Assembly (NCBI GenBank): GCA_965227295.1
Contig: OZ245742.1
Span: forward strand, 4,640,206-4,704,205
Length of the DNA stretch: 64,000 nt
DNA from: Leptonemataceae bacterium
GTDB taxonomy: Bacteria; Spirochaetota; Leptospiria; Leptospirales; Leptonemataceae
Direction: 5' to 3'
The position numbers and the translations under genes are program-made. Below the pieces are notes generated by a model, which saw only the letters and a program-made list of their open reading frames with translations, had not been told where the DNA came from and did not search any database. Below are positions 1,264-64,000 of the stretch, in pieces. The first letter of the stretch is position 1; each line of letters begins with the position of its first letter.

Positions 1264-2181
1264 ATGATCCCCGCACTGAGGAGTCGCATCATGCCCGTAG
1301 AAACGCGCGGGGGCTGGTTGTCCCGACTGTCCGCCCGCATATCACGATTTCATTCCAGTTCCGTACACGAACCTGCCGAAGAGGAACGAGCCGGCTTTCG
1401 TCGCGCCCAACGCCTGGCCTATGACTGCGTACTCGCCGTCGAACAGGAACTTCAGCCGGGCTGGACCGAACAGCAAACCGCGCGCCTCATGGACACCTAT
1501 CTTCGCGATCACGGCGTGCATGTATATCTGCACCGCCCCTTCGCCTGGTTCGGTGAGCATGCCCGCTTCGACGGCTACAAACGCTTCACGGACTTTCATC
1601 CAGGCAAACGTCGCCTGCAGGCCGACGAACCGTTCATCCTCGACGTCTCGCCCGCCGTCGACGGATACATCGGCGACATCGGTTACTCGTCGTGTCTGCA
1701 GGCCAATGCGGAGCTCGACGCCGGCATGGAGTACTTACTGGAACTGCGCGAAGCCTTACCGCGCTACTTCGCGTCTTCCATGAGCGCGGCCGAGATTTGG
1801 ATGCAAGTCGACCGCGACGCCGCGGCCCGGGGCTTCGATAACATCCATGCTCGTTATCCGTTCGCAGTCCTGGGTCATCGCGTCTATCGCCTGCGATTGT
1901 GGAAGTGGCGCCTGCCGCGCATTCCGCTGACGTTCGCAAGCTGGTTCAGTCTCCAGGGGGGCCTCGAGTTCACCACCCACAAGGTGCTGCCCGAATTGCT
2001 CACACCGGATCACGAAGGTGATAAGACCGGGCTGTGGGCGATCGAACCGCACTTCGGCCGCGGCCGCGTCGGCTTCAAGTTCGAAGAGATCCTGGTCGTC
2101 GAAAAAGAGCGCGCCTACTGGCTCGACGACGACGTTCCCCACGTGCGCAAGTATCAGCGGCGCCGGGAGTTGGCACGATGA
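1264..2181 (+). CDS. M24 family metallopeptidase-like protein (Xaa-Pro peptidase/creatinase fold)
   Basis: Pita-bread fold signatures: ILDVSPAVDGYIGDIGYS (Asp pair), LGHRVY, and FEEILVVE near the C-terminus. The stop overlaps the next start as ATGA at 2178-2181. Confidence 0.6.
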   Translation: MIPALRSRIMPVETRGGWLSRLSARISRFHSSSVHEPAEEERAGFRRAQRLAYDCVLAVEQELQPGWTEQQTARLMDTYLRDHGVHVYLHRPFAWFGEHARFDGYKRFTDFHPGKRRLQADEPFILDVSPAVDGYIGDIGYSSCLQANAELDAGMEYLLELREALPRYFASSMSAAEIWMQVDRDAAARGFDNIHARYPFAVLGHRVYRLRLWKWRLPRIPLTFASWFSLQGGLEFTTHKVLPELLTPDHEGDKTGLWAIEPHFGRGRVGFKFEEILVVEKERAYWLDDDVPHVRKYQRRRELAR

Positions 2182-3437
2182 AACTTAAACATGTTATTTT
2201 AATTGGGGCGGTGCTGCTCCTGGCGCTGATTCTGCTCGGCGGACCACCCGAGGGCGTCCGGATCGGACCGGCGTACACGGCCGGCGCAGTCCCGGCGTCC
2301 ATCCAGGCGGTGGAAGCCCCCGGTGATCCCCTGGCAACGGTCCGCAAAGAAATTCCGCAACTGCCCGGCCATGACGACCTCGTCTTCGCATCCGACGGCC
2401 GCACGGCTTACGCCTCCGGCATGGACGGCTGGATCTGGAAACTCGATCTGCATCACGGCACGGCCGAGGCCTGGGTCCGGCCGCCGGTGAACCCGGCGGG
2501 CATGCGCTTCGCAAACGCGCGGGAAGATGATCTGCTCTTCTGCGCCTCGCGTCTCGGCGGCGAAGAGTACGGCGCCGAAAACCGCGTAGGCCTGTACGAA
2601 GTAAACCTTCGCAGCGCGAAAGTTACGCCGCTCCTGCTCGATCTGCCGCTCGGTCCGGACGACGACGGGGAACAGGTCTACGCCGCCGCCAGGCAAAGCG
2701 CGGTGTCCCTCGACGAAATGAACGCGAACAACTCGCGGCCGTTCGCGTTGTGCAACGACCTGGCCGTATCCGCCGACGGAAAACGCATCTACGTAACCGA
2801 ACCCTTCGTGCGCCCGCATGCCGCCATGGGCAGCGGCGCCGTACCCGAGGCGATCGGCCTGTATCCGCACGGTAAGCTGTGGCGCTTCGATCGCGAACAA
2901 CGCACGGTCGCCCTGGTACTCGACGGTTTCACCTTCGTCGACGGCATCCTGCTCGAAGAACGCAACGGGGAAGAAGAGTCCGTCCTGATTACCGAGACCA
3001 CGAAGTTTCGTCTGCTGCGCGCCCATCTCACCGGCCCGCGCGCCGGCACAACCGAGGTGCTCTTCAAAGATTTACCGGGCCTCGCCGACGGCCTGGACCG
3101 CGATGACGACGGGCGCATCTGGATCGGCATCATCAAGAAACGCTCCGGCCTCATGAACTTCGTGCACGCGAATCCCTGGATCAAACCGTTGCTCTTACGT
3201 ATACCCCAGGCGATGTTACCGGTTTCAAAGACCACCGGCATCCTCGTGCTGGATCGGCACGCCCGACAACCGCTCTACTTCACAATGCACGACGGTTCAG
3301 CCGTCGCGGATATTTCCGTCGCCGTCCCGTACTCCGGCCGCGCATATCTGCCGACCTTCGATCGACACGCCCGCGGTCTCTACTCTCTCTCCATCGACGA
3401 CATCTTAAACGCGCCGAACCAGGAGCGCGAACCGTGA
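2178..3437 (+). CDS. Strictosidine synthase-like / SMP-30-type six-bladed beta-propeller protein with N-terminal membrane anchor (paralog 1)
   Basis: The start is taken at ATG 2178 (MKLKHVILIGAVLLLALILLGG signal/anchor), not track position 2034. Propeller motifs present: NDLAVSADGKRIYVTE, FVDGILL, LPGLADGLDRDDDGRIWIGI. Confidence 0.65.
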   Translation: MKLKHVILIGAVLLLALILLGGPPEGVRIGPAYTAGAVPASIQAVEAPGDPLATVRKEIPQLPGHDDLVFASDGRTAYASGMDGWIWKLDLHHGTAEAWVRPPVNPAGMRFANAREDDLLFCASRLGGEEYGAENRVGLYEVNLRSAKVTPLLLDLPLGPDDDGEQVYAAARQSAVSLDEMNANNSRPFALCNDLAVSADGKRIYVTEPFVRPHAAMGSGAVPEAIGLYPHGKLWRFDREQRTVALVLDGFTFVDGILLEERNGEEESVLITETTKFRLLRAHLTGPRAGTTEVLFKDLPGLADGLDRDDDGRIWIGIIKKRSGLMNFVHANPWIKPLLLRIPQAMLPVSKTTGILVLDRHARQPLYFTMHDGSAVADISVAVPYSGRAYLPTFDRHARGLYSLSIDDILNAPNQEREP

Positions 3438-4705
3438 AACGCATACGATATGTCCTGCTCGCCGTCGTTGTCATCATAGGCATCGTGCTGTGGAGTTTTT
3501 CCGCGACACCCGAACCATACTTCATCGAGCAAATCGGCGCCGGCGTGGACTTTCCCACGAATCATTCCATAGAAAAAGTCCGGGCGAATCTGGACACGGT
3601 CGGGCTGCGAACGCTCTACGAAAACGTGCCGGCTCAGGATGAGATCCTGCTGCAGGAAGCGCAGGGCCGCGCCTTCGTGGCCGCCATGGACGGTGCCATC
3701 TGGATCATCGACCTGAATTCGCAAACGGCGCGCCCCTTCGTAACGCCGCCGCTCATGCCGGCCGGCATGGTCGCCCATCCGCGTGATCCCGACCTCATCT
3801 ACTTCTGCGCATCCCGAAAAAAACCGGACGACCCGGTACAGGAGAACGGTCCCGGCATCTATCAACTACGCGTTTCCACCAGGCAGGTGACGAAAATCGG
3901 CGATCGTGTTCCCGCCATCCCGGACGGCGAACCGGCAGCAAAGCAAAGTACATTCGGCACGCTCTATGCCGACGGAACCCAACCGCGGTGGCGCATCGAC
4001 GAGATGCACGCCGGCAACAGTCGGGCCGTGGAGAAGGCGGACGACCTGGCCATCAGCAATGACGGCGAACGCATTTACTTCACCGAACCCTACGATCATC
4101 CCGGGGCCATCCTGGGCGTAAGCGATCAGTCCCGCAACGAGGCCCTCAGTCTGGGCCGGAACGGCAACATCTGGAAATACGATCTTCGCAACGGAACCGC
4201 CGCCCTCGTCGCCCACGGCTACTCGTACGTCGACGGCATCCTCCTGGAATATTCCGCGGCGGGAGAACGGGAAACCGCGCTTCTGGTCAACGAGCTCTCA
4301 CACTTTCGTTTGCTTCGACTCCACCTGCGCGGGGCGAACGCCGGACAGGATGACGTTGTCATCGAAGGTTTGCCGGGCTTCCCGGACGGCATGGACCGCG
4401 ATCCCGCCGGTCGTATCTGGGTGGCTCTGGTCGTGGAGCGATCCGTGCTCATCAACTGGCTGCATCGTCACCCGTTCTGGAAACGTTTCGTGATGTACAT
4501 CCCGCAGCGCTATCAGCCGGTGTCACGCCGCACCGCATTGCTGGTGCTCTCCCCGGACGGAGGGACACCGCTTTACTACGGCGTGCACGACGGCTCGCGT
4601 TTTTCAACGTTGATCGTCGTGATCCCGGGGAGTGAACTCGTCTACCTCGCCGTGTATGCACCGGACCGGCGCGGCATCGAAGTGATGCCCTATCCGTCCC
4701 TTTGA
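3434..4705 (+). CDS. Strictosidine synthase-like beta-propeller protein (paralog 2)
   Basis: The GTG start overlaps the upstream stop (GTGA at 3434-3437). Architecture matches paralog 1: N-terminal hydrophobic helix, DDLAISNDGERIYFTE, YVDGILL, LPGFPDGMDRDPAGRIWVALV. Confidence 0.65.
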   Translation: MKRIRYVLLAVVVIIGIVLWSFSATPEPYFIEQIGAGVDFPTNHSIEKVRANLDTVGLRTLYENVPAQDEILLQEAQGRAFVAAMDGAIWIIDLNSQTARPFVTPPLMPAGMVAHPRDPDLIYFCASRKKPDDPVQENGPGIYQLRVSTRQVTKIGDRVPAIPDGEPAAKQSTFGTLYADGTQPRWRIDEMHAGNSRAVEKADDLAISNDGERIYFTEPYDHPGAILGVSDQSRNEALSLGRNGNIWKYDLRNGTAALVAHGYSYVDGILLEYSAAGERETALLVNELSHFRLLRLHLRGANAGQDDVVIEGLPGFPDGMDRDPAGRIWVALVVERSVLINWLHRHPFWKRFVMYIPQRYQPVSRRTALLVLSPDGGTPLYYGVHDGSRFSTLIVVIPGSELVYLAVYAPDRRGIEVMPYPSL

Positions 4706-30476: not shown

Positions 30477-30932
30477 TCAAGCAATCCCCGTAGACCCGAA
30501 ACCACCCGTCCCGCGCTCGCTGCCTTCCAATTCGGTGAGGCTCTCGACTTCCTCCCACTCGAAGTCGAGCCGCCGTTCCAGCAGCATCTGCGCAATGCGA
30601 TCCCCGTGCCGAATCCGCACCGGATCCCGGCCCAGGTTCATGACGATCACCCGCAGTTCGCCGCGGTAGTCCGAGTCGATGGTACCGGGGGCGTTCGGCA
30701 GGGTGAGTCCCTCTTTCAACGCCAGGCCGGAGCGCGGGCGGAGGGAGATGAAGTACTCGTCGGGAATTTCGAAGGTGAGCCCGGTGGGGATCGTCGCCCG
30801 TTCGCCAGGGGGAACGATCACGTAAATGTCGGGTTCGAGGCAGGCACAAACGTCCAGCGCGGCCGAACCGGGAGTGGAACGCTCCGGGAGTTTCGCCCCC
30901 GGAGCACGATGGATTTTGACGCGGGGATTCAC
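30477..30932 (-). CDS. dut: dUTP diphosphatase
   Basis: Dut motifs GSAALD, RPRSGLA, PGTIDSDYRGEL and ERGTGGFGSTG. Confidence 0.92.
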   Translation of the reverse strand: MNPRVKIHRAPGAKLPERSTPGSAALDVCACLEPDIYVIVPPGERATIPTGLTFEIPDEYFISLRPRSGLALKEGLTLPNAPGTIDSDYRGELRVIVMNLGRDPVRIRHGDRIAQMLLERRLDFEWEEVESLTELEGSERGTGGFGSTGIA

Positions 30933-30984: not shown

Positions 30985-31312
30985 GAAATACGCTCGCGCA
31001 CTCCCCGGACCATGAGGTAAGTGACGGTCAGTTTAGATTAAGAAGAATATGGTTACGGCTGGTTCGAGGGGCAAGGCCACGCTTGTCGTGGCCGCGACAG
31101 TTATTCCCCTCGCACGGAGGTCAGGCCGGGGAGCGTGTTCAGGCGCACCGGAACGGCGTCTTCGTCGCAAGAGTCGCCGGAACGGAGTCGCACCAGGCGC
31201 GTCCGGGTCGAAACGAGCGTTCTTTGCAAAACGAAATTCCACAACTCCGAAGAGCCGTAGCATAACAATCCACTTCAGAAAACCGCGGTTTACTTCCTGA
31301 TTCTCACGGCGG
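30985..31312 (-). repeat. Single copy (minus orientation) of the ~330-bp intergenic repeat family
   Basis: The reverse complement aligns with the units at 55.2 and 61.3 kb. Shared blocks: CTACGGCTCTTCGGAGTTGTGGAATTTCGTTTTG, TTCGACCCGGAC, CGACGAAGACGCCGTTCCGGTGCGCC, GAACCAGCCGT, CACTTAC. The best-conserved core is 31016-31310. The dut-proximal end is degenerate. Confidence 0.8.
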
Positions 31313-31324
31313 CGTCCTGACGAC

Positions 31325-31348
31325 GACAGGGTCCCGAAAGACCCTGCC
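31325..31348 (-). other. Stable stem-loop 23 nt downstream of the pnp stop (possible 3'-end or processing hairpin)
   Basis: The minus-strand RNA reads GGCAGGGUC-UUUCGG-GACCCUGUC, a 9-bp stem with one G-U pair. There is no U-tract, so it is not a classical intrinsic terminator. Confidence 0.3.
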
Positions 31349-31371
31349 GTTCGACCGTTCACCGCGCATGA

Positions 31372-33609
31372 TCAGCGCCGCGGGCCGCCGCGACCGCGGC
31401 CGCCGTCGCGACCCCCGCCGCCGCGCCGGGCGCCGTCACGGCCGCCGCGACCACCACGGTCGCCGCCACGATCCCCGCGGCCGTTGCTGCCGCCGGCGGG
31501 AATCTTGCCGTGCAGGTCCTTGTGGATGAGGTCCACGCGGCCCTGACGATCCACGCCGAGGACGACCACGGGCACGATGTCGCCTTCTTTATAGAGGTCT
31601 TCCACCGAACGCACGCGCTCTTCGGACATCTTCGAGATGTGCAGCAGGCCTTCTTTGCCCGGAAACAACTCAATGAACGCGCCGAATTCCGCGATGCGTT
31701 TGACCACGCCCTCGTAGGTATCGCCTTCCGTCAGATCGCGGAAGATGTTCAGGATCATGTCCTCCGCGGCCTGGTTCGCTTCAGCCGACGGCGAAGCGAT
31801 GGCCACGGAGCCGTCGTCTTCGACGGAGATGTCCGCACCGGTCTTTTCGATGATCGCACGAATGATCTTGCCGCCGGGGCCGATCAACTCGCCGATGCGA
31901 TCCGGATCGATGTGGATCGTCTTAATGCGCGGTGCGTTGGGGTTAATGTCGGCCCGGGCTTCGGCCAGGGCCGCGTTCATTTTACCCAGGATGTGGTTGC
32001 GACCGGCCTCGGCCTGGGTCAGAGCCTCGCGCAGAATGTCGATGCTGATGCCCTTGAGTTTGAGGTCGAGCTGGAAGGCGGTGATGCCCTTCTCGGTGCC
32101 CGCGACCTTGAAGTCCATGTCGCCGAAGTGGTCTTCAATGCCCGCGATGTCGGAAAGAATCGCGTATTTGCCGTCTTCGCCGGTGAACAGACCCATCGCA
32201 ATGCCGGAGACCGGCGCTGAGACGGGCACGCCCGCGGCCATCATACCCAACGAACCGGAGCACACCGTCGCCATCGAGGACGAACCGTTGGACTCCATGA
32301 TTTCCGACACGATGCGAATGGTGTACGGGAAGGTGTCGTGTTTCGGCAGGACCGCGTTCAGCGCGCGCCAGGCCAGGTTGCCGTGACCGATCTCCCTGCG
32401 ACCGGGGCCCATCATGCGTTTGACCTCGCCGACGGAGTACGGCGGGAAGTTGTAGTGCAACAGGAAGTTGCGCTCCTTCTGGCCGGCCAGGGTTTCGTAG
32501 CGCTGCGCGTCCGAGGCGGTGCCCAGGGTCACGACGCCCAGGGCCTGGGTCTGCCCGCGCGTAAACACCGCCGAGCCGTGGGCGCCGGGCAGGACGTCCA
32601 GCTCCACGGAGATGTCGCGGATTTCGTCGGGCTTGCGGCCGTCGGCACGTTGGTTGTTTTCGAAGATGTTGTTGCGTACGACCTCGTACTCGAGTTCGTG
32701 CAACTCGTTCTTGATGTCTTTGATGTGACGTTCGATCTTCTCGACGCCGTCCGCCGTTAACTTAACTTCGAAGTGAGTTACGGTTTCTTTGTATACGGCG
32801 TCGATGCCGTCGCCCCGGGCTTTTTTGTCGGAGTTCTGGTTGGCGCTTTTCAGTTTCTCGAACGCGAATTCGCGCACGGCTTTCATGAGGTCCGCGTCCG
32901 GCAGGCGCAGGTTGACCTCGCGTTTCTCGACGCCGACGTCTTTGGCCAGGTCGAGCTGCATCTGGAGCTTTTTCTTGATGGCCGCGTGGCCGAATTCCAG
33001 AGCTGCCAGGATCTCGTCGTTCGTGAACTCCTGGGCGCCGCCTTCGATCATCGTCAGGGCGTCGGCGGAGCCGGCCAGGATCAGTTCGATGTCACTTTTC
33101 TCGCGCTCTTCGGCGGAGGGATCGGCCACGAAGTTGCCGTCGATACGACCGACGACCACGCCGCCGATAGGGCCGTCGAAGGGAATGTCCGAAACCATGA
33201 GGGCCGCGGAAGCCGCCGTCAGGGCGTGGCCTTCCACGGAGGTCGTGGGATCGGCGGAGAGCTGGGTTACGAGGAGCTGGACCTCGGAAAAGTAGCCCTT
33301 CGGAAAGAGCGGGCGGATGGGCCGGTCGATGATCCGGGACATAAGCGTCTCGTGATCCGCCGGGCGGTTTTCTCTTTTAAAGTAACCGCCGGGAATACGG
33401 CCGGCGGCATAGAACTTCTCGCGATAGTCAACGGTCAGGGGAAAGAAGTCCTGACCTTCGCGGGCTTCTTTTTCGGCACAGACGGTTGCGAGCAGCACCA
33501 GGTCTCCGCTGCGATAGACGACGGAGCCGTGGGCTTGCTTCGCCCAGTTACCATTTTCGATGGATACGGTGCGAGATTCGATCTCGACTTCTTGTTTGTG
33601 AACGGGCAT
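31372..33609 (-). CDS. pnp: Polyribonucleotide nucleotidyltransferase (PNPase) with an RGG-rich C-terminal tail
   Basis: Two RNase PH domains, KH ([11 protein letters not shown]) and S1 ([15 protein letters not shown]) domains, then a 45-aa Gly/Arg tail. Confidence 0.95.
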
Positions 33610-54000: not shown

Positions 54001-55239
54001 TTGCAGTCGCCCGTGTCGCATCGCTCGTATCTTCCGGTCCTGGCCTTCTTCGCTGCGTTGGGCACCGCCGCCGTGTTCGTCACGGGCGGTTACGTTCCCT
54101 TTCTCACGCCCTGGGTTCTTTTCATCGATGTGTTGTGCATGGTTGCCCTGGCCGCCGGGGCGGTCTTCCTCTTCGTGCGCAACCGCGCCACGTTCACGGG
54201 GGATCGCTTGTTCTTCGCCCTGCTGGCCATCCCCGTTCTCCTGGCGTTGATCGCGCTGGTAAACGGTTCGCTCTTCTGGGCGTTTTTCAAGATCGGCGGC
54301 TGGTTCTTGTTGCCCGCGGCGTACGTGTTGCATCGCGCGCGTCCGGAGCTGCTCGATCGTCATCTCGGTCGCACATCCCTGACGGTCCTGGGCTGCATCG
54401 TCCTGGCCTTTGTCTTTCCCCGCGCCGGGCATTTGTTCTTTTACGGCCACGACGACTACCTGCTGTTCTTTCCGCGCGCGTTCGAAAACGGCAACGTCTT
54501 CGCCTTTCAGATTGTACTGCTGCTTCCGTTTATTCTGGAGTACTCCGCCGGCAACGAACTTACCGACGGCCGCCGACGCAAGCGCGCGCTGACCGCGGCC
54601 CTGGTGGCGATCGGCTTTCTCCTGATGGCCTATACATCTTCCGCGATCGGCCTCGCCCTGTATGTCGTCCTCGCCGTGTTTACGCTGGTCCAGGAGCGCA
54701 TGCACATTTCGCCGATGGTGTTGTTCACCGCCGGCCTGATCGCCGCCGCCTTTGCGCTGGCCCTGGTCGCCGTGGATGTTTTGTACTTCGAAACGTTCAC
54801 TCACAGCGGCAGCCTGGAAATGCGCCGGCTGATCTACTCCAACTCGGTGCGCGTCACCGGCGAACGCATCTTCAGCGGCCACGGTGCCGGCTCGTTCGCG
54901 TCGTTCTGGTTGAACTACACACCGGCCTACATTCGCGGCGAGATGGCTTACGTCGATCTCGTGGAACTCTGCATTCGTTGCAAAGAGCGCGATTGTCTCT
55001 GTCATCCCATGGCCCATAACCTGGGCCTCACGCTTTCCGTGGAGTTCGGTATCCTGGCCCTCATTCCCTGGATCGCGGCGATCGTGTTCGCCGTGCGCCG
55101 CGCCTCGAACCTCACCCGCGCCGCGTACGCCGTGGCCCCTCTGGTGTGGTCCCTGCTCGACGATCCGCTCTACTTCTGGCCGAACATCGCCCTGTTCGGC
55201 GTACTGGTTGCTCGAGCGTTTCCTCCGAGACAAGAGTAG
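54001..55239 (+). CDS. O-antigen ligase-like (Wzy_C family) polytopic membrane protein
   Basis: TTG start and about 10 hydrophobic segments. A periplasmic loop carries IFSGHGAGSFASFW, typical of O-antigen ligase/polymerase-like proteins. Confidence 0.65.
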   Translation: MQSPVSHRSYLPVLAFFAALGTAAVFVTGGYVPFLTPWVLFIDVLCMVALAAGAVFLFVRNRATFTGDRLFFALLAIPVLLALIALVNGSLFWAFFKIGGWFLLPAAYVLHRARPELLDRHLGRTSLTVLGCIVLAFVFPRAGHLFFYGHDDYLLFFPRAFENGNVFAFQIVLLLPFILEYSAGNELTDGRRRKRALTAALVAIGFLLMAYTSSAIGLALYVVLAVFTLVQERMHISPMVLFTAGLIAAAFALALVAVDVLYFETFTHSGSLEMRRLIYSNSVRVTGERIFSGHGAGSFASFWLNYTPAYIRGEMAYVDLVELCIRCKERDCLCHPMAHNLGLTLSVEFGILALIPWIAAIVFAVRRASNLTRAAYAVAPLVWSLLDDPLYFWPNIALFGVLVARAFPPRQE

Positions 55240-55240
55240 C

Positions 55241-55831
55241 GATTCGGGCGTACTCGAACGAATCAAACGTTTCCGGTAATTCAAGAGCCGCGGTTCGTAA
55301 CGTTTACCGTGAGAGACACAAGGTAAGTTGCGCAATAGGTAAGAGGCTGCATTCGACCCGGACGCCGGTTTGCGACTCAGCTATCGGAGCGTTTCTTACG
55401 AAGAAGACGCCGTTCCGGTGCGCCTTACCATGTTCCCCGGCATGACCTCCGTTCATCTGCTGGAACCAGCCGTGACCATAAAAGTGTGAATCCAAACTGG
55501 CCGCAACTTACACCACGATTCGGGGCGTGCTCGAACGTATGAAAAGTTTCCGGTAGTTCAAGAGCCGCGGTTCGTTGCGTTTAACGTGAGACACACAAGG
55601 TAAGTTGCATTATGGGTAAGGGATTGATTTGGCTACGGCGAAGCGGGAGTTGTGGATTTTCGTTTTGTTAAGACAGTCCGCATCGACCCGGACGTCGGTA
55701 TGCGGCTCAGCTCCCGCAGCGTTGCTTGCGGCGAAGACGCCGGGGACTTATGCTTTCCGCCGATGCGGAAAGCCGGCGGATCAGAACTCTCGCTGAAGCG
55801 GGAATTCTGCCGGTGCGCCTTACCACATTCA
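55241..55831 (+). repeat. Array A of the ~330-bp repeat family (about 2 copies with module-level indels)
   Basis: The array starts 2 nt after the TAG stop at 55237-55239. The anchor GAAGACGC occurs at 55403 and 55733, a period of 330. Copy 1 (55241-55516) lacks about 50 bp of the consensus. Copy 2 carries a ~65-bp insertion at 55742-55806. Confidence 0.9.
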
Positions 55832-55862
55832 CCTGCACCTTACAGCACAGGCCCGCGGCTCC

Positions 55863-56708
55863 TTACGCCGGGAGTTTCTGACAGTTCGGACAGATGTGCG
55901 TTCCTCGCTGAGCGACTTTGAGTTTCACGATCTTCCGTTTGCAGCGCAGGCACGGGAGACCCTGGCGCTGGAAGACCAGGAGCATGTCAGTGTAACCGCC
56001 CTCATAGCCGCCCAGAAACTTGAAGTTCATGAACGAAGTGCCGTTCGCCTGGATCGATTTTTCCAGCACCTCGCGGATAGCGCCGTGCAGCTTCTTAACT
56101 TTCGCCGGTGGAATCTTACGCGACGGGGTGAGCGGATGAATGCGGGCCATCCACAAAGACTCGTCCACGTAGATGTTGCCCAGGCCGGCGATGAATTCCT
56201 GATCCAGCAACAACGGTTTGATCATGCGGTTGTGTGATTGCAGATTGTGGCGGAGCCAGTCCGGAGTAAAACGCGCGGCGTCCAGGGGCTCCGGACCGTA
56301 GCGCTCCGAAAACTTCGCGAAGGCCGCGGCGTCGGCGTAGTAATAGACGCGACCGAAGCGACGCTGATCTTCAAAGACGAGGTGTTTGCGATCGGCATCG
56401 TCCAGGTGCAGGACCGCGGAGTAGTGCTTGCGTTCTTGTTTCGGCGGCAGCGCGGGCAGCGGATACAGCTTGCCGGTCATGCGCAAATGAATCAACACGC
56501 GGGCGCCGTCGTCCAGCTCCAGGATCAAGAATTTCGCGCGGCGCTGCACCGCCAGGATGCGGCGACCCACAACGGCCTTACGCACGGCGGGCAGCGAGAT
56601 GTCGTGCAGGGCGCGAGGCCAGTGACGATCGAAACCCGTGATGGTCCGGCCTACGAGAAAGGGACGCAGGGAGCGAGCGACTGTTTCAACTTCCGGGAGT
56701 TCGGGCAT
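55863..56708 (-). CDS. mutM: Formamidopyrimidine-DNA glycosylase
   Basis: N-terminal MPELPEVE and a C-terminal zinc finger (CLRCKRKIVKLKVAQRGTHICPNCQ). The 90-codon upstream extension in the track is rejected. Confidence 0.92.
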   Translation of the reverse strand: MPELPEVETVARSLRPFLVGRTITGFDRHWPRALHDISLPAVRKAVVGRRILAVQRRAKFLILELDDGARVLIHLRMTGKLYPLPALPPKQERKHYSAVLHLDDADRKHLVFEDQRRFGRVYYYADAAAFAKFSERYGPEPLDAARFTPDWLRHNLQSHNRMIKPLLLDQEFIAGLGNIYVDESLWMARIHPLTPSRKIPPAKVKKLHGAIREVLEKSIQANGTSFMNFKFLGGYEGGYTDMLLVFQRQGLPCLRCKRKIVKLKVAQRGTHICPNCQKLPA

Positions 56709-56730
56709 GATCGCCGAAGTTGCAGTCTGA

Positions 56731-57738
56731 CTACTGTAACTTCCAGAAATATATAGTACCGTCCCAGGCCCCGGCGGCGAGTGTTTTTCCGTCCGGATCA
56801 AAGTCCACCGAATGCAACCGGCCGGGCACCGCCCGGCTGCGCAACAACGCACCGTCCGCGAGTCGATAGACCTCGACGCTGGACGTGCCGGCTTCCCGAT
56901 CCTGCTGAAGCAACGCCAGGCGTTCGCCGTCCGGATGAAAGGCGGCGCGCACCGGCACAGTACTAAAGTTAAACTCAATGACAGTTACCGGGTCGCCGCT
57001 ACGACTGTCGCGCACCCGGCGCCCGTCGAAGTACCGCGCCCCGTCCCGGGAAAAAACGAACAACGGCTGTTCCTCCGGACGAAACGGATACTCCGTACGA
57101 TGCAGGAGTTCTCCGCTCTCCACGTCCACGAGCAACATGTAATTGTCGCGCCAGTTCCAGAGGGCCAGGGTATCCAGGTCCGGACTGATTGCGAACGCGC
57201 GGACGAAGTCCCGGCGCTCCGCGAACACCGGCAGCTGCATCGTTCGACTCAGCCGACGTTCCACGAGACTCCAGATCCGCACGCGACCGTCCCGATCCAC
57301 GGCGAGCAGGCGACGTCCCGTACGACTGAAGGCGATCAATTCCAGCGCACCGATGATCTCCCGCTCCGGCGTCAGACGAATGGGCGCGTCGCCGAAGGCC
57401 TGGTGCACAATGACGTCTCCGCCGCGGCATTCCCGCCGCCGCGAAACCACGTAGAGGCTGTCCGGACTGAAGCGCACGTCTTGCAGAGCGCAATCGGAAG
57501 CGCGCAGCCGGCCGCCGTAACTGCGAGTCGGCGCTCCTGCTTCGGCTTCGGCCGGAACACGCAGGACGTGGGCGCGGCCGGTACTGCCGGCCACCACCCA
57601 GCGACCGTCCGGGCTGAAGCTCAGCGATTGCGCGGGGTCCGGCGACCGCAGCGTGAGGGCCGCCTCCCCGCGCGCGGCAAACAGCGAACTGCCGATGCCC
57701 ACCAGGAGGACGGCCGTGTATGCGAAATGCTTTCTCAT
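56731..57738 (-). CDS. Secreted WD40/PD40-like beta-propeller repeat protein
   Basis: A signal peptide is followed by repeated SPDG/DPDG..lA/V blades (FSPDGRWVVAGS, FSPDSLYVVS, FHPDGERLALL, FDPDGKTLAAGAWDGTIYFWKL). Confidence 0.65.
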   Translation of the reverse strand: MRKHFAYTAVLLVGIGSSLFAARGEAALTLRSPDPAQSLSFSPDGRWVVAGSTGRAHVLRVPAEAEAGAPTRSYGGRLRASDCALQDVRFSPDSLYVVSRRRECRGGDVIVHQAFGDAPIRLTPEREIIGALELIAFSRTGRRLLAVDRDGRVRIWSLVERRLSRTMQLPVFAERRDFVRAFAISPDLDTLALWNWRDNYMLLVDVESGELLHRTEYPFRPEEQPLFVFSRDGARYFDGRRVRDSRSGDPVTVIEFNFSTVPVRAAFHPDGERLALLQQDREAGTSSVEVYRLADGALLRSRAVPGRLHSVDFDPDGKTLAAGAWDGTIYFWKLQ

Positions 57739-57849
57739 CCAACGAATTCCCGCGAGAACGCGGACCTTCTTATTTAAGAAGACTTATAACTTGACATCGG
57801 CAGATTTCCGCCGGCCCAATACCGGAAATATATCCCCGGAGTTTCAGCG

Positions 57850-60800
57850 ATGAGCACAGCCGCCTCCGCCGCAGCAGCAGAATCAGGAATTTACACCAGC
57901 ACTCATAAGGTTCGTTTTGTTACCGCCGCCTCGCTCTTCGACGGCCACGACGCATCCATCAACATCATGCGGCGCATCCTGCAGGCCAGCGGGGCCGAGG
58001 TCGTTCACCTGGGGCACAACCGCTCCGTCCGCGAGGTGGTGGACGCCGTCCTCCAGGAAGACGCCCAGGGCGTCGCGATCTCTTCGTACCAGGGCGGGCA
58101 CGTCGAATACTTCAAGTATCTCCACGATCTGCTGCGCGAAAGCGGTGCCGGCCACGTGAAGATCTACGGCGGCGGCGGCGGGGTCATCGTACCGGAAGAG
58201 ATTCGCGATCTGGAAGGGCACGGCATTACGAAGATCTTCTCGCCGGAGGACGGCCGGCGCATGGGCCTGCAGGGCATGATCAACAGCATGATGCAGGCCT
58301 GCGACTTCGATCCCTGCCCCGCCCTGGAAGGATCGCGCCTCAACGAACTCCCGGATTTTTACAAACTTTCACAGATCATAAGTTACGTCGAGAACCATCG
58401 CGACGGCGACGACCTGCCCGCGGCGGCGGAACTGCTGAGCGGCGCAACGAATGCTCCAAACGATAATCAGACGCCGGCAAAAGTCGCCCCGCCGGTCCTC
58501 GGCATTACCGGCCCGGGCGGCGCCGGCAAGTCTTCGCTCACCGACGAACTCTGCCTGCGGTTCCTCGAAAACAACGCCGACGCGAAGATCGCCGTGCTCG
58601 CCGTGGATCCCACGCGTCGCAAGACCGGCGGCGCATTGCTCGGTGATCGCATCCGCATGAACGCCCCGACGCTGTTTCCCGAGCGCGTCTTTGTACGTTC
58701 TCTGGCCACCCGCGGCGCGAACCGCAGCCTTTCGGAAGCCCTGCGTCCCGTCATCGAACTCATCCAGAAGTGCGGCCGCTTTGACTTGATCATCGTGGAA
58801 ACGTCCGGCACCGGCCAGTCCGACGACGAGGTCATCGGTGTCGCCGATCGTACGCTTTACGTTATGACCGCGGAATTCGGCGCGCCGACCCAGCTCGAAA
58901 AAATCGCCATGCTGGACTTCGCCGATCTCGTCGCCATGAACAAAGCCGAGAAACGCGGCGCCGACGACGCCGTGCGCCACGTACAAAAACAGTACCAGCG
59001 CAATCACAATCGCTTCGCCGATCCCGTGGACGCCATGCCGGTCTACGCCACCGTGGCCAGTCGTTTCAACGATCCCGGGGTGAACCGACTCTACAACGCC
59101 CTGGCAAAGACTCTCTCCGGAGACGCAGTTCGGTTCGCCGCGATTCCGGAAGCGGCCCTCGCCGCCAATTCCTCGGACATCGAAATCATCGCTCCCCAAC
59201 GCGTGCGTTATCTCTCCGAGATTTCCGAAGCCGTGCGCGGTTATCACAAAGCCGGCGCCGAGAACGTCGACCTCGCCCGGGAACTGGACGCCCTGCAGCG
59301 CGCCCGGGCTTCCCTGGAAAAAAGCGGTGCGGCCTCCGCCGCCGTACTCACGGCCCTGGAAGAACAACACGAGTCCGTACGCAAACAACTGGGCCGCAAC
59401 GATCCGGCGCTTTTGGAATTCCTGGAAGCCTGGCCGCAAACAAAGGCGGCGTTCTCCGGCGACGAGTACGTGTATTCGATCCGCGGCAAAGAACTGCGCC
59501 AACCGCTCAAAACGCTAACATTATCCGGGACAAAGTTACCGGTCCTGGCCCTGCCGCCGTACGAATCCCTGGGCGAGCTCGCCCGCTACTACTACAAAGA
59601 AAATCTGCCCGGCCGCTTTCCCTTTACGGCCTCGGTTTTTCCGTTTCGTCGCGCCGGGGAAGATCCCACCCGCATGTTCGCCGGCGAAGGCGGACCGGAA
59701 CGGACCAACGTACGCTTTCATTATCTCGCGGGTTCGGCGCAGCGTCAGGAAAATGAGGCGTTGCCGGCGCGGCTGTCGACGGCCTTCGACAGCGTTACGC
59801 TCTACGGCGAAGATCCCGCCCGACGGCCGGACATCTACGGCAAGGTCGGCAATTCCGGCGTGAGTGTCCCGTCCCTCGACGACTGCAAACGATTGTACAG
59901 CGGCTTTGATCTGACGGCACCGTCCACCTCGGTATCCATGACGATCAACGGGCCGGCGCCGGTCATTCTGGCATTCTTCTTCAACACCGCCGTGGATCAG
60001 CAGATCGAACGGCACCTGCGCGAAACCGGCGGCTACGACGCCGCGCGAACCAAGATCGAAACGTTCTATCGCGAGCGCGGCCTGGAACCGCCGGCCTATC
60101 GCCGCGATCTCCCGACCGGCCACGACGGCAACGGTGTGAATCTACTCGGTCTGTCCGGCGACCGTCTGGTGGATGCGGAAACCTACGAACGCATCAAGAC
60201 GGAAACCCTGGCGAAGGTCCGCGGTACGGTGCAGGCGGACATCTTAAAAGAAGACCAGGCCCAGAACACCTGCATCTTCTCCACGGCCTTCGCCCTGCGC
60301 ATGATGGGCGACATCCAGGAGTTCTTTGTCACGAATCAAATTCGTAACTTTTACTCCGTAAGTATTAGCGGCTATCACATTGCCGAGGCCGGGGCCAATC
60401 CCATCAGCCAGCTCGCCTTTACCCTGGCCAACGGCTTCACCTACGTCGAATACTACGTCAAGCGCGGCCTGGACGTAAACGCCTTCGCCCCGAACCTCTC
60501 GTTCTTTTTCTCGAACGGTCTGGACGCCGAGTACAGCGTCATCGGCCGGGTGGCCCGGCGCGTCTGGGCCATCGCCATGCAACGTCTCTACGCCGCCGAC
60601 GAGCGTTCGCAGAAGTTGAAGTATCACATCCAGACGAGCGGCCGTTCGTTGCACGCGCGCGAGATCGACTTCAACGACATTCGCACCACGCTCCAGGCAC
60701 TCTATGCGCTCTACGACAACTGCAACAGTCTGCACACGAACGCCTACGACGAAGCCATCACCACCCCCACGGAAGATAGCGTGCGCCGTGCCGTGGCCAT

Positions 60801-61317
60801 TCAGTTGATCATTAATAAGGAACTGGGCCTCAACAAGAATCACAACCCCGTGCAGGGCGCCTATATCGTGGAAGAACTCACGGACCTCGTCGAAGAAGCC
60901 GTGCTCGCGGAGTTCGATCGCCTCACCGAACGCGGCGGGGTGCCCGGCGCCATGGAAACGATGTACCAACGCGGCAAGATCCAGGAGGAGTCCCTGCACT
61001 ACGAACACCTGAAGCACAGCGGCGAACTGCCGGTCATCGGCGTGAATACGTTTTTGAATCCGCGCGCCGAAGACCAACCGGAGACGGAACTCATGCGTTC
61101 CTCCGAGGACGAAAAGGAAAGTCAGATTGCCGGCGTAACCGAATTTCAGCGTGCCTTTGCGGACGAGTCCCCGGCGGCGTTGGCCAAACTCAAAAACGTG
61201 GCCCTTGCCGGCGGCAACATCTTTGAGGAACTTATGGACACCGTAAAGGTCGCAACGCTCGGACAAATCAGCGCGGCATTGTACGGCGTGGGCGGAAGCT
61301 ACCGGCGGAATATGTAG
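57850..61317 (+). CDS. icmF: Fused isobutyryl-CoA mutase IcmF (B12-binding domain, MeaB-like GTPase and mutase domain)
   Basis: The N-terminal cobalamin domain has DGHDAS..I. A P-loop GTPase ([26 protein letters not shown]) follows. The C-terminal acyl-CoA mutase barrel has the expected length of 1155 aa. Confidence 0.9.
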
Positions 61318-61318
61318 G

Positions 61319-62328
61319 CACGTCGGTTCACGACTCAACTATCGTTGCGTATCTTCCGGCGAAGACGCCGTTCCGTTGCGCCGTATCACATCCCCCGGCA
61401 TGACCTCCGTTCATCTGCTGGAACCAGCCGTACCCATACAAGGCTTAATGCACACTGGCCGCCACTTACACCACGATTCGGAGCGTCTACGAACTACCGA
61501 AAAATTTTTGGTAATTCAAGAGCTGCGGTTCGCTGCGCTTGCCGTGAGACGCGCAAGGTAAGTTGCGCAATGGTGAAGGGCTTGATTTGGCTACAGCTGA
61601 GCGGGAGTTGTGGATTTTCGTTTTGCTAAGTTAGTCCGCCTCGACCCGGACGTCGGTTTGCGACTCAGCTACTGTAGCGGTTCTTACGACGAAGACGCCG
61701 TTCCGGTGCGCCTTACCACATTCCCCGGCATGACCTCCGTTCATCTGCTGGAACCAGCCGTGCCCATAAAAATATTAATCCAAACTGGCCGCAACTTACT
61801 TCAAGATTCGGGGCGTGCTCGAACGAATCAAACGTTTCCGGTAGTTCAAGAGCCGCGATTCGTTGCGTTTGCCGTGAGACGCGCAAGGTAAGTCGCGCAA
61901 TGGTGAAGGGCTTGATTTGGCTACAGCTGAGCGGGAGTTGTGGATTTTCGTTTTGCTAAGTTAGTCCGCCTCGACCCGGACGTCGGTTTGTGACTCAGCT
62001 ACTGTAGCGGTTCTTACGACGAAGACGCCGTTCCGGTGCGCCTTACCACATCCCCCGGCATGACCTCCGTGGTCGCCTGGAACCAGCTGTACCAATAAAA
62101 GTCTTAATCCAAACTGGCCGCAACTTACATCACGATTCGGGGCGTGCTCGAACGAATCAAACGTTTCCGGTAGTTCAAGAGCCGCGATTCGTTACGTTGG
62201 CCGTGAATAACAGAAAGTAAGCCTTAAAAAGGCTGAGGGAATTTTTTGGCTACGGCTCTTCGGAGTTGTGGAGTTTCGTCTTGTTAAGAATGCTGCGTTC
62301 GACCCGGACGTCGGGTTGCGACTCAGCT
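61319..62328 (+). repeat. Array B of the ~330-bp repeat family (about 3.06 tandem copies)
   Basis: The array starts 2 nt after the icmF TAG. The anchor GAAGACGCCG occurs at 61361, 61691 and 62021, a period of exactly 330. The array starts and ends on the same motif, CGTCGG(T/G)T.GCGACTCAGCT. Confidence 0.95.
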
Positions 62329-62724
62329 TCGTGCGTCGAACAGACGACCGGATTCCTGGTCGCTCGGAGCGGCACCGCGTACCGGAAGCAGCATTTGCAG
62401 ATCTTCGAGGCTCATGACGAGCTCCAGGCGTTCTTCGAGGGGTACTTCACTGGGACGCAGCACGAGCTTCTGCCGTTCTTCCAGGCTGAGGCCCTGGCGT
62501 TCGGCAATCGCTTCCGCGCCCTGCTCCGGTGGTGTCTCCGCGACACGCTCGGTGGCGCTGGCGTTGCGGCGCAACAGACCCACTTCCAGATCGATTTCGC
62601 GCGTGTCGGCCCGCTGCTGTTCCTGAGCAGGAGCAGCTTCCGTAGCTCGTCCACCCGCCTGGAGATGCGCCGGGGGGGTGTGCGAGATGTTTGTGATTCC
62701 GTTCACAGCCATCGTTGCCGTCAT
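62323..62724 (-). CDS. Hypothetical protein (Glu/Arg/Leu-rich, 133 aa)
   Basis: A GGAGG sequence lies 7 nt upstream of ATG 62724. The composition looks natural. The TGA stop (62323-62325) lies inside the last bases of repeat array B. Confidence 0.6.
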   Translation of the reverse strand: MTATMAVNGITNISHTPPAHLQAGGRATEAAPAQEQQRADTREIDLEVGLLRRNASATERVAETPPEQGAEAIAERQGLSLEERQKLVLRPSEVPLEERLELVMSLEDLQMLLPVRGAAPSDQESGRLFDARS

Positions 62725-62858
62725 AGTGAAACCTCCGTGTTTCCGGTACGTACTTCGGAGGTCCCCACAGGAACTTAATCAAAAAATCCTTGATAACGCA
62801 AGGAAAAAGCGGAATTTCGCCGAACCTCCCCTGTCCTGCGACGCGCTGTCCAATCTTT

Positions 62859-64000
62859 ATGCATAAACCATTTACAATCCTCTCCGTCCCGCTTCTGGCC
62901 ATCTTCGTGGCCATCTTCCTGACCGGCCGCCCGCTGGAGGCCCAGACGGCCGGGGAATTCGACGACTTCAATGAATTCGACGAGGACGGTGGCTGGGCCG
63001 ACAACTGGCTGGACGGTTTCAGCATGCACGGCCGGGTCCAGATTCTGCCGGTCTACCAGGGGAACTACGACTTCGCCAGAGATACGGACGACCACGACGA
63101 GTTCGTCGTTCAGAAGACGCAGTTGGGCTTCGAAAAACGATTCAACGGTCCGTTCGTAGCCCGGGTTACGGCGCAGGACTCACGGCTCTGGGGTGGCGAA
63201 CCGGGGTCGGACTCCGGCCTCGGCAACGCCAACGACAATACCAACGAGTCCTTCGACATGCGTGAGGGTTACCTCGGCATGGAAAAGGCCGGCGGCTGGT
63301 TCAGCACACGGCTCGGCCGGCAAATCCTGGCCTTCGGCGACAACCGCCTGGTTGGTCGAGCGGATTGGGGGCCCTCGGGACGCAGCTTCGACGCGGCCCG
63401 CTTCGACGTGGATGCCGGCCTCTACACCGGCACGTTGTTCGGAGCCGTCCTCGCCGAAGAGGACGACGGCCTGCAGGGCAACAGCACAGACGTGGGCCGG
63501 GGTAACTCATCCGATTTTTCGTTCACCTGCAACAGCGCCGGAACCAGTTGCCAGATCACGAGCGGCACGCCCAATGAACTGGACGACGCCTACCTCGTCG
63601 GCTTCTACAATACGTTTCGCATCAGTGAGCACCTGCACGCCGACGCCTACTACTTCGGCCGCTACAAGAAGTACATCCAGAGCAGTACGCCCATCCTGAA
63701 TCTTCCCGAGGCCACCGTCACCACCGAAGACCGGGACCGCCAGCGGGACAACCTGCATACCGTGGGCGCGCGATTCACCAACACCACCGCCGGCAAACGC
63801 AAGGCCGTCATTCCCTTCGACTGGACCGTGGAGTACGCCTACCAGACAGGCATCACCGGCAATCGCGTCGATGCATCCTGGGACTGGCTCGGCGTCACCA
63901 TCCCCCGCGTGGACGCGAACGGCATTCCGGAGTTCGACGCGAACGGCAACCTGGTCACGGAAAAACTCTACAAAGAAAAGGAACGCTACGAAAGCCACGC
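62859..64000 (+). CDS. Alginate-export-family outer-membrane beta-barrel protein (3' end outside the window)
   Basis: This ORF is absent from the supplied track because it has no stop. I translated the frame from ATG 62859 to the window end without encountering a stop. It has a signal peptide (MHKPFTILSVPLLAIFVAIFLTGRPLEAQ). The motif RLGRQILAFGDNRLVGRADWGPSGRSFDAARFD is typical of the alginate_exp porin family. Confidence 0.7.
   Translation, partial: MHKPFTILSVPLLAIFVAIFLTGRPLEAQTAGEFDDFNEFDEDGGWADNWLDGFSMHGRVQILPVYQGNYDFARDTDDHDEFVVQKTQLGFEKRFNGPFVARVTAQDSRLWGGEPGSDSGLGNANDNTNESFDMREGYLGMEKAGGWFSTRLGRQILAFGDNRLVGRADWGPSGRSFDAARFDVDAGLYTGTLFGAVLAEEDDGLQGNSTDVGRGNSSDFSFTCNSAGTSCQITSGTPNELDDAYLVGFYNTFRISEHLHADAYYFGRYKKYIQSSTPILNLPEATVTTEDRDRQRDNLHTVGARFTNTTAGKRKAVIPFDWTVEYAYQTGITGNRVDASWDWLGVTIPRVDANGIPEFDANGNLVTEKLYKEKERYESH

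Follow-up and report, generated by a model that had tools for sequence, protein, structure and literature searches.

The tandem array that lies directly downstream of icmF in the 64-kb stretch of DNA analysed here (hereafter the window) probably belongs to a lineage-specific family of interspersed mosaic repeats, non-coding and with a unit of about 330 bp, of which it would be one locus, an explanation that includes a proposed role of the repeat at the 3' ends of genes. The repeat is an unnamed family of the familiar bacterial interspersed-mosaic-repeat kind (BIME, BOX, Correia-like) and not a new type of system. In keeping with an interspersed repeat, several unlinked copies were found together with empty sites in relatives.

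The array occupies positions 61320-62328 of the plus strand and comprises three units and 21 nt of a fourth, with unit starts at 61320, 61650 and 61980 as delimited by repeat search and MAFFT alignment. For 61320-62206, Tandem Repeats Finder gives a period of 330, 2.7 copies, 89% matches and 0% indels, and the 10-mer GAAGACGCCG recurs at 61361, 61691 and 62021, exactly at the period of 330 given in the original prediction. Unit 1 (61320-61649, 330 nt) is most diverged in its 5' two-thirds, which are 81% identical to unit 2, and its 3' third is nearly identical to that of unit 2 (61650-61979, 330 nt). Unit 3 (61980-62307) measures 328 nt, with two 1-nt deletions, and its 3' module from about 62205 onwards is of a different subtype, common to the copy at 31185-31269. 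The segment replacement previously described in this unit is indeed present, about 45 bp being exchanged for a stretch with AGCCTT-AAA-AAGGCT and a T run. The units have a G+C content of 52-55%, lower than the 61% of the window, and their 60-nt lines range from 0.45 to 0.62 with a mean of 0.54, so that the earlier figure of about 45% was wrong.

Both flanking genes abut the array as originally described. The upstream gene icmF (57850-61317, plus strand) encodes a fused isobutyryl-CoA mutase/GTPase (NCBIfam NF045497, 1696 bits) rather than the IcmF of type VI secretion, and the repeat starts at 61320, just past the TAG ending at 61317. At the other end, the 21 nt of the fourth unit (62308-62328) overlap the stop codon (62323-62325) of the convergent ORF133 (62323-62724, minus strand), a conserved hypothetical gene with homologues in relatives, where the native C-terminus reads ..D[AF]RS*.

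The repeat was first described from the array behind icmF, but it is not a local satellite of that region: two further loci lie in the window. The 10-mer recurs at 55403 and 55733 and, reverse-complemented, at 31154, and the repeat is therefore dispersed rather than local. The second locus (55240-55847, plus strand) starts directly after the TAG of a Wzy-like ORF and extends to some 15 nt short of the fpg stop; an extension of the Fpg alignment into this array was discarded as spurious because it crosses two stop codons. It consists of a partial unit (unit positions 155-267) with the hairpin region deleted, a full unit (55362-55691), and a 3' part in which a 67-nt inserted module (55743-55809) separates unit positions 1-51 from unit positions 54 to about 90. 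The third locus (30987-31310, minus strand) is one unit in the phase 222->330->1->179, with a 49-nt hairpin insertion (31065-31113) and a UUCG hairpin (31260-31239), and it lies in the spacer between pnp, coding for polynucleotide phosphorylase (31372-33609, minus strand), upstream, and the dUTPase gene dut (30477-30932, minus strand; 74% identical to the dut of a relative), downstream. Beyond these three loci, BLASTN and an nhmmer profile of the units identified no further copy in the window. At least 12 further units are present elsewhere on the same 5.94-Mb chromosome, as deduced from ORFs called inside the copies: the repeat-derived ORFs P0121-P0127 all map to a contig of 5,938,550 bp that also bears a 100%-identical IcmF. 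The profile search added P0129-P0131 as further repeat-derived ORFs, the placement on the contig resting on P0121-P0127.

The sites of the copies were compared with those of relatives. L088, a 72% relative, has 20 nt between icmF and its homologue of ORF133, and the pnp-dut spacer, which measures 439 nt here, is 36 nt in L089 and 7 nt in L090. With spacers of only 7-36 nt in relatives at two repeat loci, the copies are therefore insertions, and insertion into a 20-nt icmF-ORF133 spacer explains why the array is flush with both stop codons. An origin of the arrays as remnants of lost genes was rejected, since tblastn of the genes that the relative L081 has at the repeat sites gave no similarity to them. 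The repeat was found in no other genome searched. Conserved 21-23-nt motifs of the unit had zero true matches in GTDB representative genomes, JGI metagenomes and IMG/VR; the exact motif GAAGACGCCGTTCCG[N]TGCGCC had no match in the same three collections, and the one JGI match to a second exact motif lies inside a coding region and was set aside as due to chance. Moreover, neither 80 icmF loci nor the closest relatives L081-L088 gave a significant match to an nhmmer profile of the units, and BLASTN against plasmid and phage collections gave no match to the repeat.

As judged from the alignments, the units are shown to be made of swapped modules that were recently homogenised by conversion. Module breakpoints lie near unit positions 222 and 91-99. 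The tract at 61541-61740 differs from that at 61871-62070 at exactly three positions, as first reported, and this 200-nt tract begins exactly at unit position 222, as does the copy at 31310. Hairpins that vary or are replaced occur at the fixed unit positions 88-104 and 228-262. The 67-nt module inserted at 55743 is found again in P0125, P0129 and P0130; neither this nor the 49-nt insert was found elsewhere in the window, and there they are not independent small repeats. Unit 1 alone carries a near-perfect palindrome at 61491-61517 (GAACTACCGAAAAA/TTTTTGGTAATTC) where the other units have an imperfect hairpin, and the clustering of its changes points to an origin by template switching.

The insertions could also be those of a non-autonomous transposable element, either MITE-like or a palindrome-associated IS200/IS605 derivative, with its transposase encoded elsewhere and arrays formed by repeated or nested insertion. 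We consider this unlikely. True insertions into short spacers at unrelated loci are what such an element would produce, the length of about 330 bp is suitable, the module boundary at 222 has hairpins close by (unit positions 172-198 and 228-262), and a genome-specific family is typical of young mobile elements. However, neither phase of the unit has terminal inverted repeats, the sole reported pair being internal, 18 nt long and involving unit 1, and no target-site duplication is recognisable at the junctions. The termini moreover differ between loci (1->21, 155->~90 and 222->179), unlike the constant ends of a MITE or of a cut-and-paste or site-specific element with defined ends. The exact head-to-tail period of 330 bp and the shared conversion tract point to recombination and not to repeated insertion, and no transposase gene is present in the unit or its immediate neighbours.

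The repeat also contains terminator-like hairpins. The AGCCTT-AAA-AAGGCT palindrome of unit 3 (62220-62234, in the replaced module) had been put forward as a terminator, and the scan rates it as weakly terminator-like on the minus strand, where it follows ORF133. A better candidate is the hairpin with U tract found at unit positions 272-306 of every intact unit. In unit 1 (61591-61625, plus strand) it reads CUACAGCU-GAGCGGG-AGUUGUGG followed by the tail AUUUUCGUUUUG, and the same structure is predicted in unit 2 (61921-61955, plus strand). Unit 3 has a variant (62250-62283, plus strand) with a UUCG tetraloop (GGCUC-UUCG-GAGUU), nine pairs, -11.8 kcal/mol and a U-rich tail. The stem comprises 8-9 pairs, including 2-3 G.U pairs, and an A-U to G.U change within it retains pairing; the predicted energy is -11.8 to -13.1 kcal/mol on the plus strand versus -1.3 on the reverse strand. 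Hairpin and U tract occur together in four of the five hairpin-bearing positions and are co-directional with icmF, the Wzy-like ORF and pnp, so that in silico the strand read from the upstream gene has the stem-loop and U tract of a candidate intrinsic (Rho-independent) terminator. The stability of the hairpin is only moderate and the U tract is interrupted. In addition, the terminator scan is permissive, with 23-37 matches per 20 kb against 18-21 in shuffled sequence, and for type-I units a slightly more stable alternative is predicted in which the U tract base-pairs with the loop. In relatives pnp and dut are neighbours with the same direction; efficient termination between them would cut off dut unless the unit supplied a promoter, and no sigma-70-like one was found.

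The same hairpin could instead mark the end of a small or medium regulatory RNA, each unit being an independent RNA gene and the array a multi-copy sRNA cluster. This is quite unlikely in our judgement. In its concrete version, an ECF-sigma-type promoter, GGAACC-N17-TCTTAAT (unit positions 101-130), would drive an RNA of about 170 nt ending at the hairpin and U tract. Such a gene would suit the strand-specificity of the hairpin and U tract and the UUCG loop typical of RNA, the conserved block CTGGAACCAGCCGT followed by a variable spacer and a conserved TTAAT, and the varying hairpins at fixed unit positions. The motif GGAACC-N15-18-TCTTAA is rare by chance (0.02 expected), with one exact match, in unit 3, and in both the pnp-dut copy and P0131 the part of the unit that follows the hairpin is directly upstream of a co-oriented gene. 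Against this, the -10 element varies, the other units having TATTA, GCTTA or TGTGA, and a sigma-70 scan found no promoter in or near the arrays. The copies are also truncated at arbitrary phases and belong to a single genome among those searched.

Structure predictions did not convincingly support an RNA gene either. Folding of whole units by minimum free energy on both strands was no better than that of shuffled sequence (z = +0.6 to +0.9), and the 175-nt candidate RNA of the 55-kb copy reached z = -0.18; the value of -2.46 for unit 1 is due to its private palindrome. A 9-nt inverted pair had been said to recur in most copies and to hint at RNA structure. It is present in copies 1 and 2, with one mismatch each, and absent from copy 3, where the 3' arm is lost; only the copy at 55507/55600 has GCAACTTAC/GTAAGTTGC fully paired, a point in favour of an RNA, but the changes elsewhere are one-sided and break the pairing, so that the proposed helix is not supported. 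The covariation check, by RNAalifold and pair counts, was not convincing. The RNAalifold covariation term was unfavourable in the two phases (+2.35 and +0.19), and pairing was retained in 93% of cells versus 92% in shuffles. Four double-sided changes were counted, a number reached by 5 of 500 shuffles and, with only five related sequences, within the false-positive range of the control; they stem from a poorly aligned copy. Finally, Rfam, with its riboswitches, self-cleaving ribozymes, omega/HEARO RNAs, group II introns and sRNAs, gave no match in the whole window at gathering thresholds and, as anticipated, no match to the repeat family even at E <= 10; the sole match at that level within 60800-63000, to the rpsB sRNA, scored 15 bits where the gathering score is 40 and was rejected. 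No tRNA or tmRNA was found in the repeat, and the whole 330-nt unit is repeated head-to-tail with no unique spacers, unlike the direct repeats of about 23-50 nt parted by unique spacers of similar length in a CRISPR, which confirms that the array is not one.

The candidate promoter and the hairpin can also be combined into a mobile terminator-plus-promoter cassette or multi-copy RNA gene, in which transcription from upstream would stop at the hairpin and restart from the ECF-sigma-like site; we regard this as improbable. Such a cassette would insert into minimal spacers between genes with no terminal repeats, possibly from a concatemeric intermediate, which may account for the arbitrary phases at the array ends. 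The upstream transcript would be ended at the UUCG or G.U hairpin, and the restart from GGAACC-N17-TCTTAAT would give rise to one RNA of about 170 nt from each unit or else to the mRNA for a downstream gene (dut or the P0131 gene), which would place the neighbouring genes under a stress sigma factor.

Coding potential was assessed by translating the frames, testing codon positions, searching Pfam and NCBIfam, and running a profile against 1.84 billion proteins, which retrieved only ORFs of the same genome and spurious repeat proteins. A decayed tandem protein domain (110 codons per unit, cadherin-like), or a unit still encoding a protein of about 93-106 aa, would fit the period of exactly 330 nt, or 110 codons, and the one frame open in unit 2 and in at least nine ORFs called elsewhere, among them one of 197 aa that spans two units. 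The translated motif FRFxxxxxxDPDVGLRLSY...AVPVRLT is weakly cadherin-like (P0132, E = 1.8e-5 summed over 5 repeats), with a weak hit to Pfam Cadherin_CELSR2_9th (E = 0.18); Pfam and NCBIfam gave no family match for the repeat translations. However, the other hits, P0133 and P0134, are repeat proteins of unrelated kinds and align with different regions of the profile, which indicates that the E-values of the profile search are inflated by internal repetition. The units do not evolve as coding sequence either, as the original prediction had held: substitutions are even over codon positions (e.g. 17/15/11), with no third-position excess in any unit pair, and the amino-acid identity of about 70% at about 85% nucleotide identity is that expected of neutral DNA. 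The 93-codon frame is kept open in the window by unit 2 only, and stops or frameshifts break it in three of the four full units (1, 3 and b2), including the reported change from TTGCGA at 61658 to TTGTGA at 61988; the indels measure 1, 47-49 and 67 nt. As the copies moreover occupy unrelated short spacers and the arrays do not resemble the genes found there in relatives, a coding origin is very improbable and was rejected, the cadherin-like and other matches being artefacts of repetitive proteins.

A lineage-specific interspersed repeat thus remains the preferred explanation, and it can be compared with known families. BIMEs and REP sequences are non-coding and occur in many copies that are confined to spacers at gene 3' ends and between convergent genes; they are transcribed in 3' UTRs, with proposed roles as terminators or mRNA stabilisers (PMC3184786; bioRxiv 10.64898/2026.03.23.713779). 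The repeat studied here is likewise non-coding and located in spacers, mosaic and modular, and locally clustered in tandem, as in the enterobacterial BIMEs. REP units, which are associated with a RAYT (Y1 transposase) in the genome, are GC-rich imperfect palindromes about 35 nt long whose orientation often alternates, whereas the present unit is 330 nt long, is arranged head-to-tail with all copies within the array direct, has a G+C content below that of the window, carries short palindromes only internally rather than consisting of one, and shares no sequence similarity with REP/BIME. BOX elements of Streptococcus pneumoniae are modular intergenic repeats with a variable tandem number of an internal module; they are transcribed, have predicted stem-loops and are restricted to their genus. 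Modularity, tandem iteration and predicted stem-loops are thus common to both, but BOX modules measure 45-60 nt and are always arranged as A-B(n)-C between fixed ends, whereas here the whole 330-nt unit is iterated and loci are truncated at arbitrary phases. The Correia/NEMIS elements of Neisseria are small insertional repeats near genes, whose expression they can change through terminator or promoter activity. The repeat described here is similarly insertional and lands close to genes, and it lacks the 25-nt terminal inverted repeats and TA target duplication of these elements, which are 100-155 bp long. Finally, the MIRUs of Mycobacterium are tandem repeats of variable copy number in very short operon spacers, flush with stop and start codons, a placement that the present repeat resembles; their units are 40-100 bp long and often contain small in-phase ORFs that couple translation, whereas the 330-bp unit has stop codons in every frame.

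For this repeat we propose insertion by a mechanism acting in trans, after which unequal crossing-over or gene conversion would multiply the copies locally into tandem arrays. The unit would have no transcript of its own and would form the 3' tail of that of the upstream gene, and its hairpin and U tract may serve as an intrinsic terminator or 3'-end stabiliser that insulates convergent or neighbouring genes, the remainder of the unit being selfish or neutral passenger DNA. The repeat thus possibly acts as a 3'-end terminator or insulator, a role suggested by the predicted fold and its orientation.

If this explanation is correct, a young repeat family would have been caught in action in a poorly known lineage related to the Leptospirales, where it splits the rpsO-pnp-dut operon, widens the junction of two convergent genes from 20 nt to 1 kb and offers homology for rearrangements. 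A long-standing question would be opened only if the units proved to be RNA genes or promoter cassettes. For annotation, the small ORFs called within the repeat are to be taken as spurious, and the copy number could be used for strain typing. More broadly, the family may provide a model for the spread of non-coding repeats that have no obvious transposon ends.

The repeat behind icmF, whose product is a fused isobutyryl-CoA mutase/GTPase (Pfam B12-binding, MeaB and MM_CoA_mutase; NCBIfam NF045497, 1696 bits), was recovered by Tandem Repeats Finder as a single array (61320-62206; period 330, 2.7 copies, 89% matches, 0 indels). Gap-free repeat finding and MAFFT alignment placed the unit starts at 61320, 61650 and 61980 on the + strand, followed by a fourth unit that stops after 21 nt (62308-62328). 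Most details of the original prediction were confirmed, namely the 10-mer at 61361, 61691 and 62021, the array start 2 nt past the icmF TAG, the 3 differences between 61541-61740 and 61871-62070, the TTGCGA to TTGTGA change and the replaced segment with AGCCTT-AAA-AAGGCT in unit 3. The G+C content of about 45% was wrong, the units having 52-55% and the window 61%, and the inverted pair GCAACTTAC/GTAAGTTGC, attributed to most copies, is imperfect in units 1 and 2 (a mismatch in each) and lost in unit 3.

The notion of a local satellite-like array did not hold: BLASTN with the unit and an nhmmer profile built from the units identified two more loci within the window, and no others, so that the repeat is a dispersed family, and self-comparison showed it to be the sole non-coding dispersed repeat of the window. 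Locus B (55240-55847, + strand) begins immediately behind the TAG stop codon of a Wzy-like ORF and runs to ~15 nt short of the stop codon of the convergent fpg. It opens with unit positions 155-267 (numbered 1-330 within one unit), after which a deletion has taken out the hairpin region. A complete unit follows (55362-55691), and then positions 1-51 and 54 to ~90, with a 67-nt insert between them. Locus A (30987-31310, - strand), in the pnp-dut spacer, is one unit in the phase 222 to 330 and 1 to 179, with a 49-nt hairpin inserted near unit positions 91-99.

A search of 5.8 billion proteins with the translated unit, and one of 1.84 billion representatives with a profile of the resulting matches, gave as true matches only short ORFs annotated by gene callers in other copies of the repeat. 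ORFs P0121-P0127, one of which (197 aa) spans two tandem units, all lie on the 5,938,550-bp contig that also carries the window (IcmF cluster P0001, 100% identity), and P0129-P0131 are additional ORFs derived from the repeat. Since none of these ORFs equals any in-window copy, at least 12 more units are present elsewhere in the genome, contig placement being seen for P0121-P0127. True matches to the unit's conserved 21-23-nt motifs were absent from GTDB (one genome for each species), JGI metagenomes and IMG/VR, and neither plasmids nor phages matched the repeat. P0131 (238 aa) begins in a repeat unit (~positions 10-130, ending just past TCTTAAT) and runs on into what looks like a real gene; with dut, this makes two cases in which a partial unit lies directly upstream of a co-oriented gene.

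Judging from the identities of its PNPase (64% to Leptonema illini, 60-62% to Leptospira) and of the best IcmF match in any GTDB representative (68%, a Leptospiraceae MAG), the host is a relative of Leptospirales. In the related locus L088 (IcmF 72%), which has the gene order of the window, the spacer between icmF and the convergent homologue of ORF133 (62323-62724, - strand) is 20 nt, whereas in the window it is occupied by the 1,009-bp array. A spacer as short as that of L088 explains why the array touches both stop codons; the C-terminus of ORF133 is native. In two further relatives, L089 (PNPase 79%) and L090 (72%), dut adjoins pnp in the same direction across gaps of 36 and 7 nt, compared with 439 nt, including copy A, in the window. 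The repeat is absent from all the relatives' loci compared, and these comparisons indicate that copies of it have been inserted where the native spacer was very short. L081 (ENA ERZ26052130 ctg19893l; IcmF 75%) has extra genes, without similarity to the arrays, at the sites corresponding to B and to array C behind icmF.

Some features of these regions are worth recording. Compared with window 54001-57777, L081:1749-9815 has two further genes between fpg and the 411-aa membrane ORF, one for a 1007-aa DUF1554/Calx-beta protein and one for a methyltransferase, and in L081 ~7 kb of genes separate icmF from the ORF133 homologue; arrays B and C sit exactly at gene-content breakpoints between the window and L081. 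Directly after icmF, L081:13470-13660 holds an unrelated tandem repeat of ~53 bp, in which the last ~20 nt of icmF (..AGCTACCGAAGAAATATGTGA) are re-duplicated four times, with GGCGGTCAGCTGCCGC, a segment that contains a palindrome, behind each copy; given this repeat, the icmF 3' end seems prone to tandem duplication within the lineage. ORF133 and its homologues (L081:20361-20810, L088:8434-8796) share the motif LVL[RK]PSEV..E[ED]R..LVMSLED[LV]Q. This conserved small protein matches no Pfam or NCBIfam family, and its gene always adjoins an Alginate_exp outer-membrane gene, in L088 also a FecR-like gene. The Arg/Gly-rich C-terminal tail of PNPase (31384-31483, - strand) is encoded by degenerate 18/30-bp tandem repeats, with similar tails in L089 and L090. 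Between the pnp stop and copy A (31311-31371, - strand) lies a hairpin, CAGGGTC-TTTCG-GGACCCTG, lacking a U tract and a counterpart in the relatives' 36-nt and 7-nt spacers, which may be a native feature or else a part of the element that has diverged. Finally, ~440 nt at 66% identity (2696-3122 and 3981-4420) between the adjacent genes 2034-3437 and 3434-4705 suggest a tandem paralogous pair.

Identity between units 1 and 2 is 81% over positions 1-221, but a single difference separates them in the 109 positions of 222-330, and units 2 and 3 are almost identical across positions 1-91. Together these stretches form the 200-nt tract with 3 differences, starting exactly at position 222, which is also the start of the single copy A and near which unit 3 changes to the other 3'-module subtype, common to copy A. 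The 49-nt hairpin of copy A lies in a second hot spot, positions 91-99, together with the conversion-tract end and a 1-nt deletion variant that P0126 shares; P0125, P0129 and P0130 contain the 67-nt insert of locus B as well. Clustered changes in unit 1 (positions 172-198) have made the family's imperfect hairpin a near-perfect 13-bp palindrome, matching the product of template-switch correction of quasi-palindromes, the presumed mechanism. These patterns point to gene conversion and unequal crossing-over that continue between units of the same locus and of different loci. We favour, as the probable reading, a young, genome-specific, non-coding interspersed mosaic repeat: the unit would enter a minimal intergenic spacer, and recombination would then multiply it into tandem arrays. 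Dispersed insertions could also be those of a non-autonomous transposon with its partner elsewhere in the genome, an origin that we regard as unlikely.

Every intact unit carries CUAC[A/G]GCU-loop-AGUUGUGG and then AUUUUCGUUUUG at positions 272-306. The stem includes 2-3 G.U pairs, an A-U to G.U change retains it, and two copies (unit 3 and copy A) have a C(UUCG)G tetraloop. Predicted folding energies are -11.8 to -13.1 kcal/mol on the + strand and only -1.3 on the complement, so the hairpin is meaningful only in RNA read in the direction of icmF, the Wzy-like ORF and pnp. As modelled, hairpin and U tract fit the definition of an intrinsic terminator; the terminator scan was permissive, the U tract is broken, not continuous, and a competing fold is predicted in type-I units. 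A strong terminator in the pnp-dut spacer would require a compensating promoter. At 61456-61625 and equivalents, four segments are mutually complementary (unit positions 141-151, 239-248, 270-279 and 287-294), CCGCAACUUAC pairing with GUAAGUUGCG or instead with the 3' arm of the terminator-like hairpin, GAGUUGUGG. The predicted layout is formally that of a terminator/anti-terminator, at a pairing length expected by chance with G.U pairs allowed.

Such structure might suggest an array of sRNA genes, as might GGAACC-N17-TCTTAAT (positions 101-130), a conserved -35-like block, variable spacer and conserved TTAAT whose -10 part differs between units; its resemblance to an ECF-sigma promoter is a lead only. 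The promoter scan found no sigma-70-like promoter, and the unit matched no Rfam family, a check named in the original prediction. Whole-unit MFE z-scores are positive (unit 2, +0.74 on the + and +0.58 on the - strand; locus-B unit, +0.92), and the RNAalifold covariation term of the unit alignments is unfavourable. Cells pair in 93.4% of cases in the predicted structure and 92.1% in shuffles, and most of the four double-sided changes are contributed by copy A, whose alignment is doubtful; for five related sequences this is within the tool's stated false-positive range. We consider such an array quite improbable.

The original prediction that the unit is non-coding was borne out. The frame open over 93 codons in unit 2 is shut in units 1, 3 and b2 (of locus B), where a stop or a frameshift interrupts it, inter-unit substitutions are even over the three codon positions (e.g. 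17/15/11 and 16/18/17), there are indels of 1, 49 and 67 nt, and unit-derived peptides match no Pfam or NCBIfam family. The profile search also gave three long proteins (cadherin-like, FG-GAP-like and tail-fibre-like; E ~1e-5), which were treated as inflated chance, being mutually unrelated and hitting different profile parts via 4-7 internal repeats; the period of 110 codons was therefore taken as coincidence. Decayed coding repeats are a very remote prospect.

The location of the favoured repeat, its mosaic structure and the role presumed for it in 3'-UTRs recall BIME/REP, BOX, Correia and MIRU elements; lacking the defining sequence features of each, it represents an unnamed family, new but of the same general type. 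The sole recognisable functional part of its unit is the RNA hairpin with its U tract, which, on the predicted folding, probably terminates or stabilises the upstream transcript.
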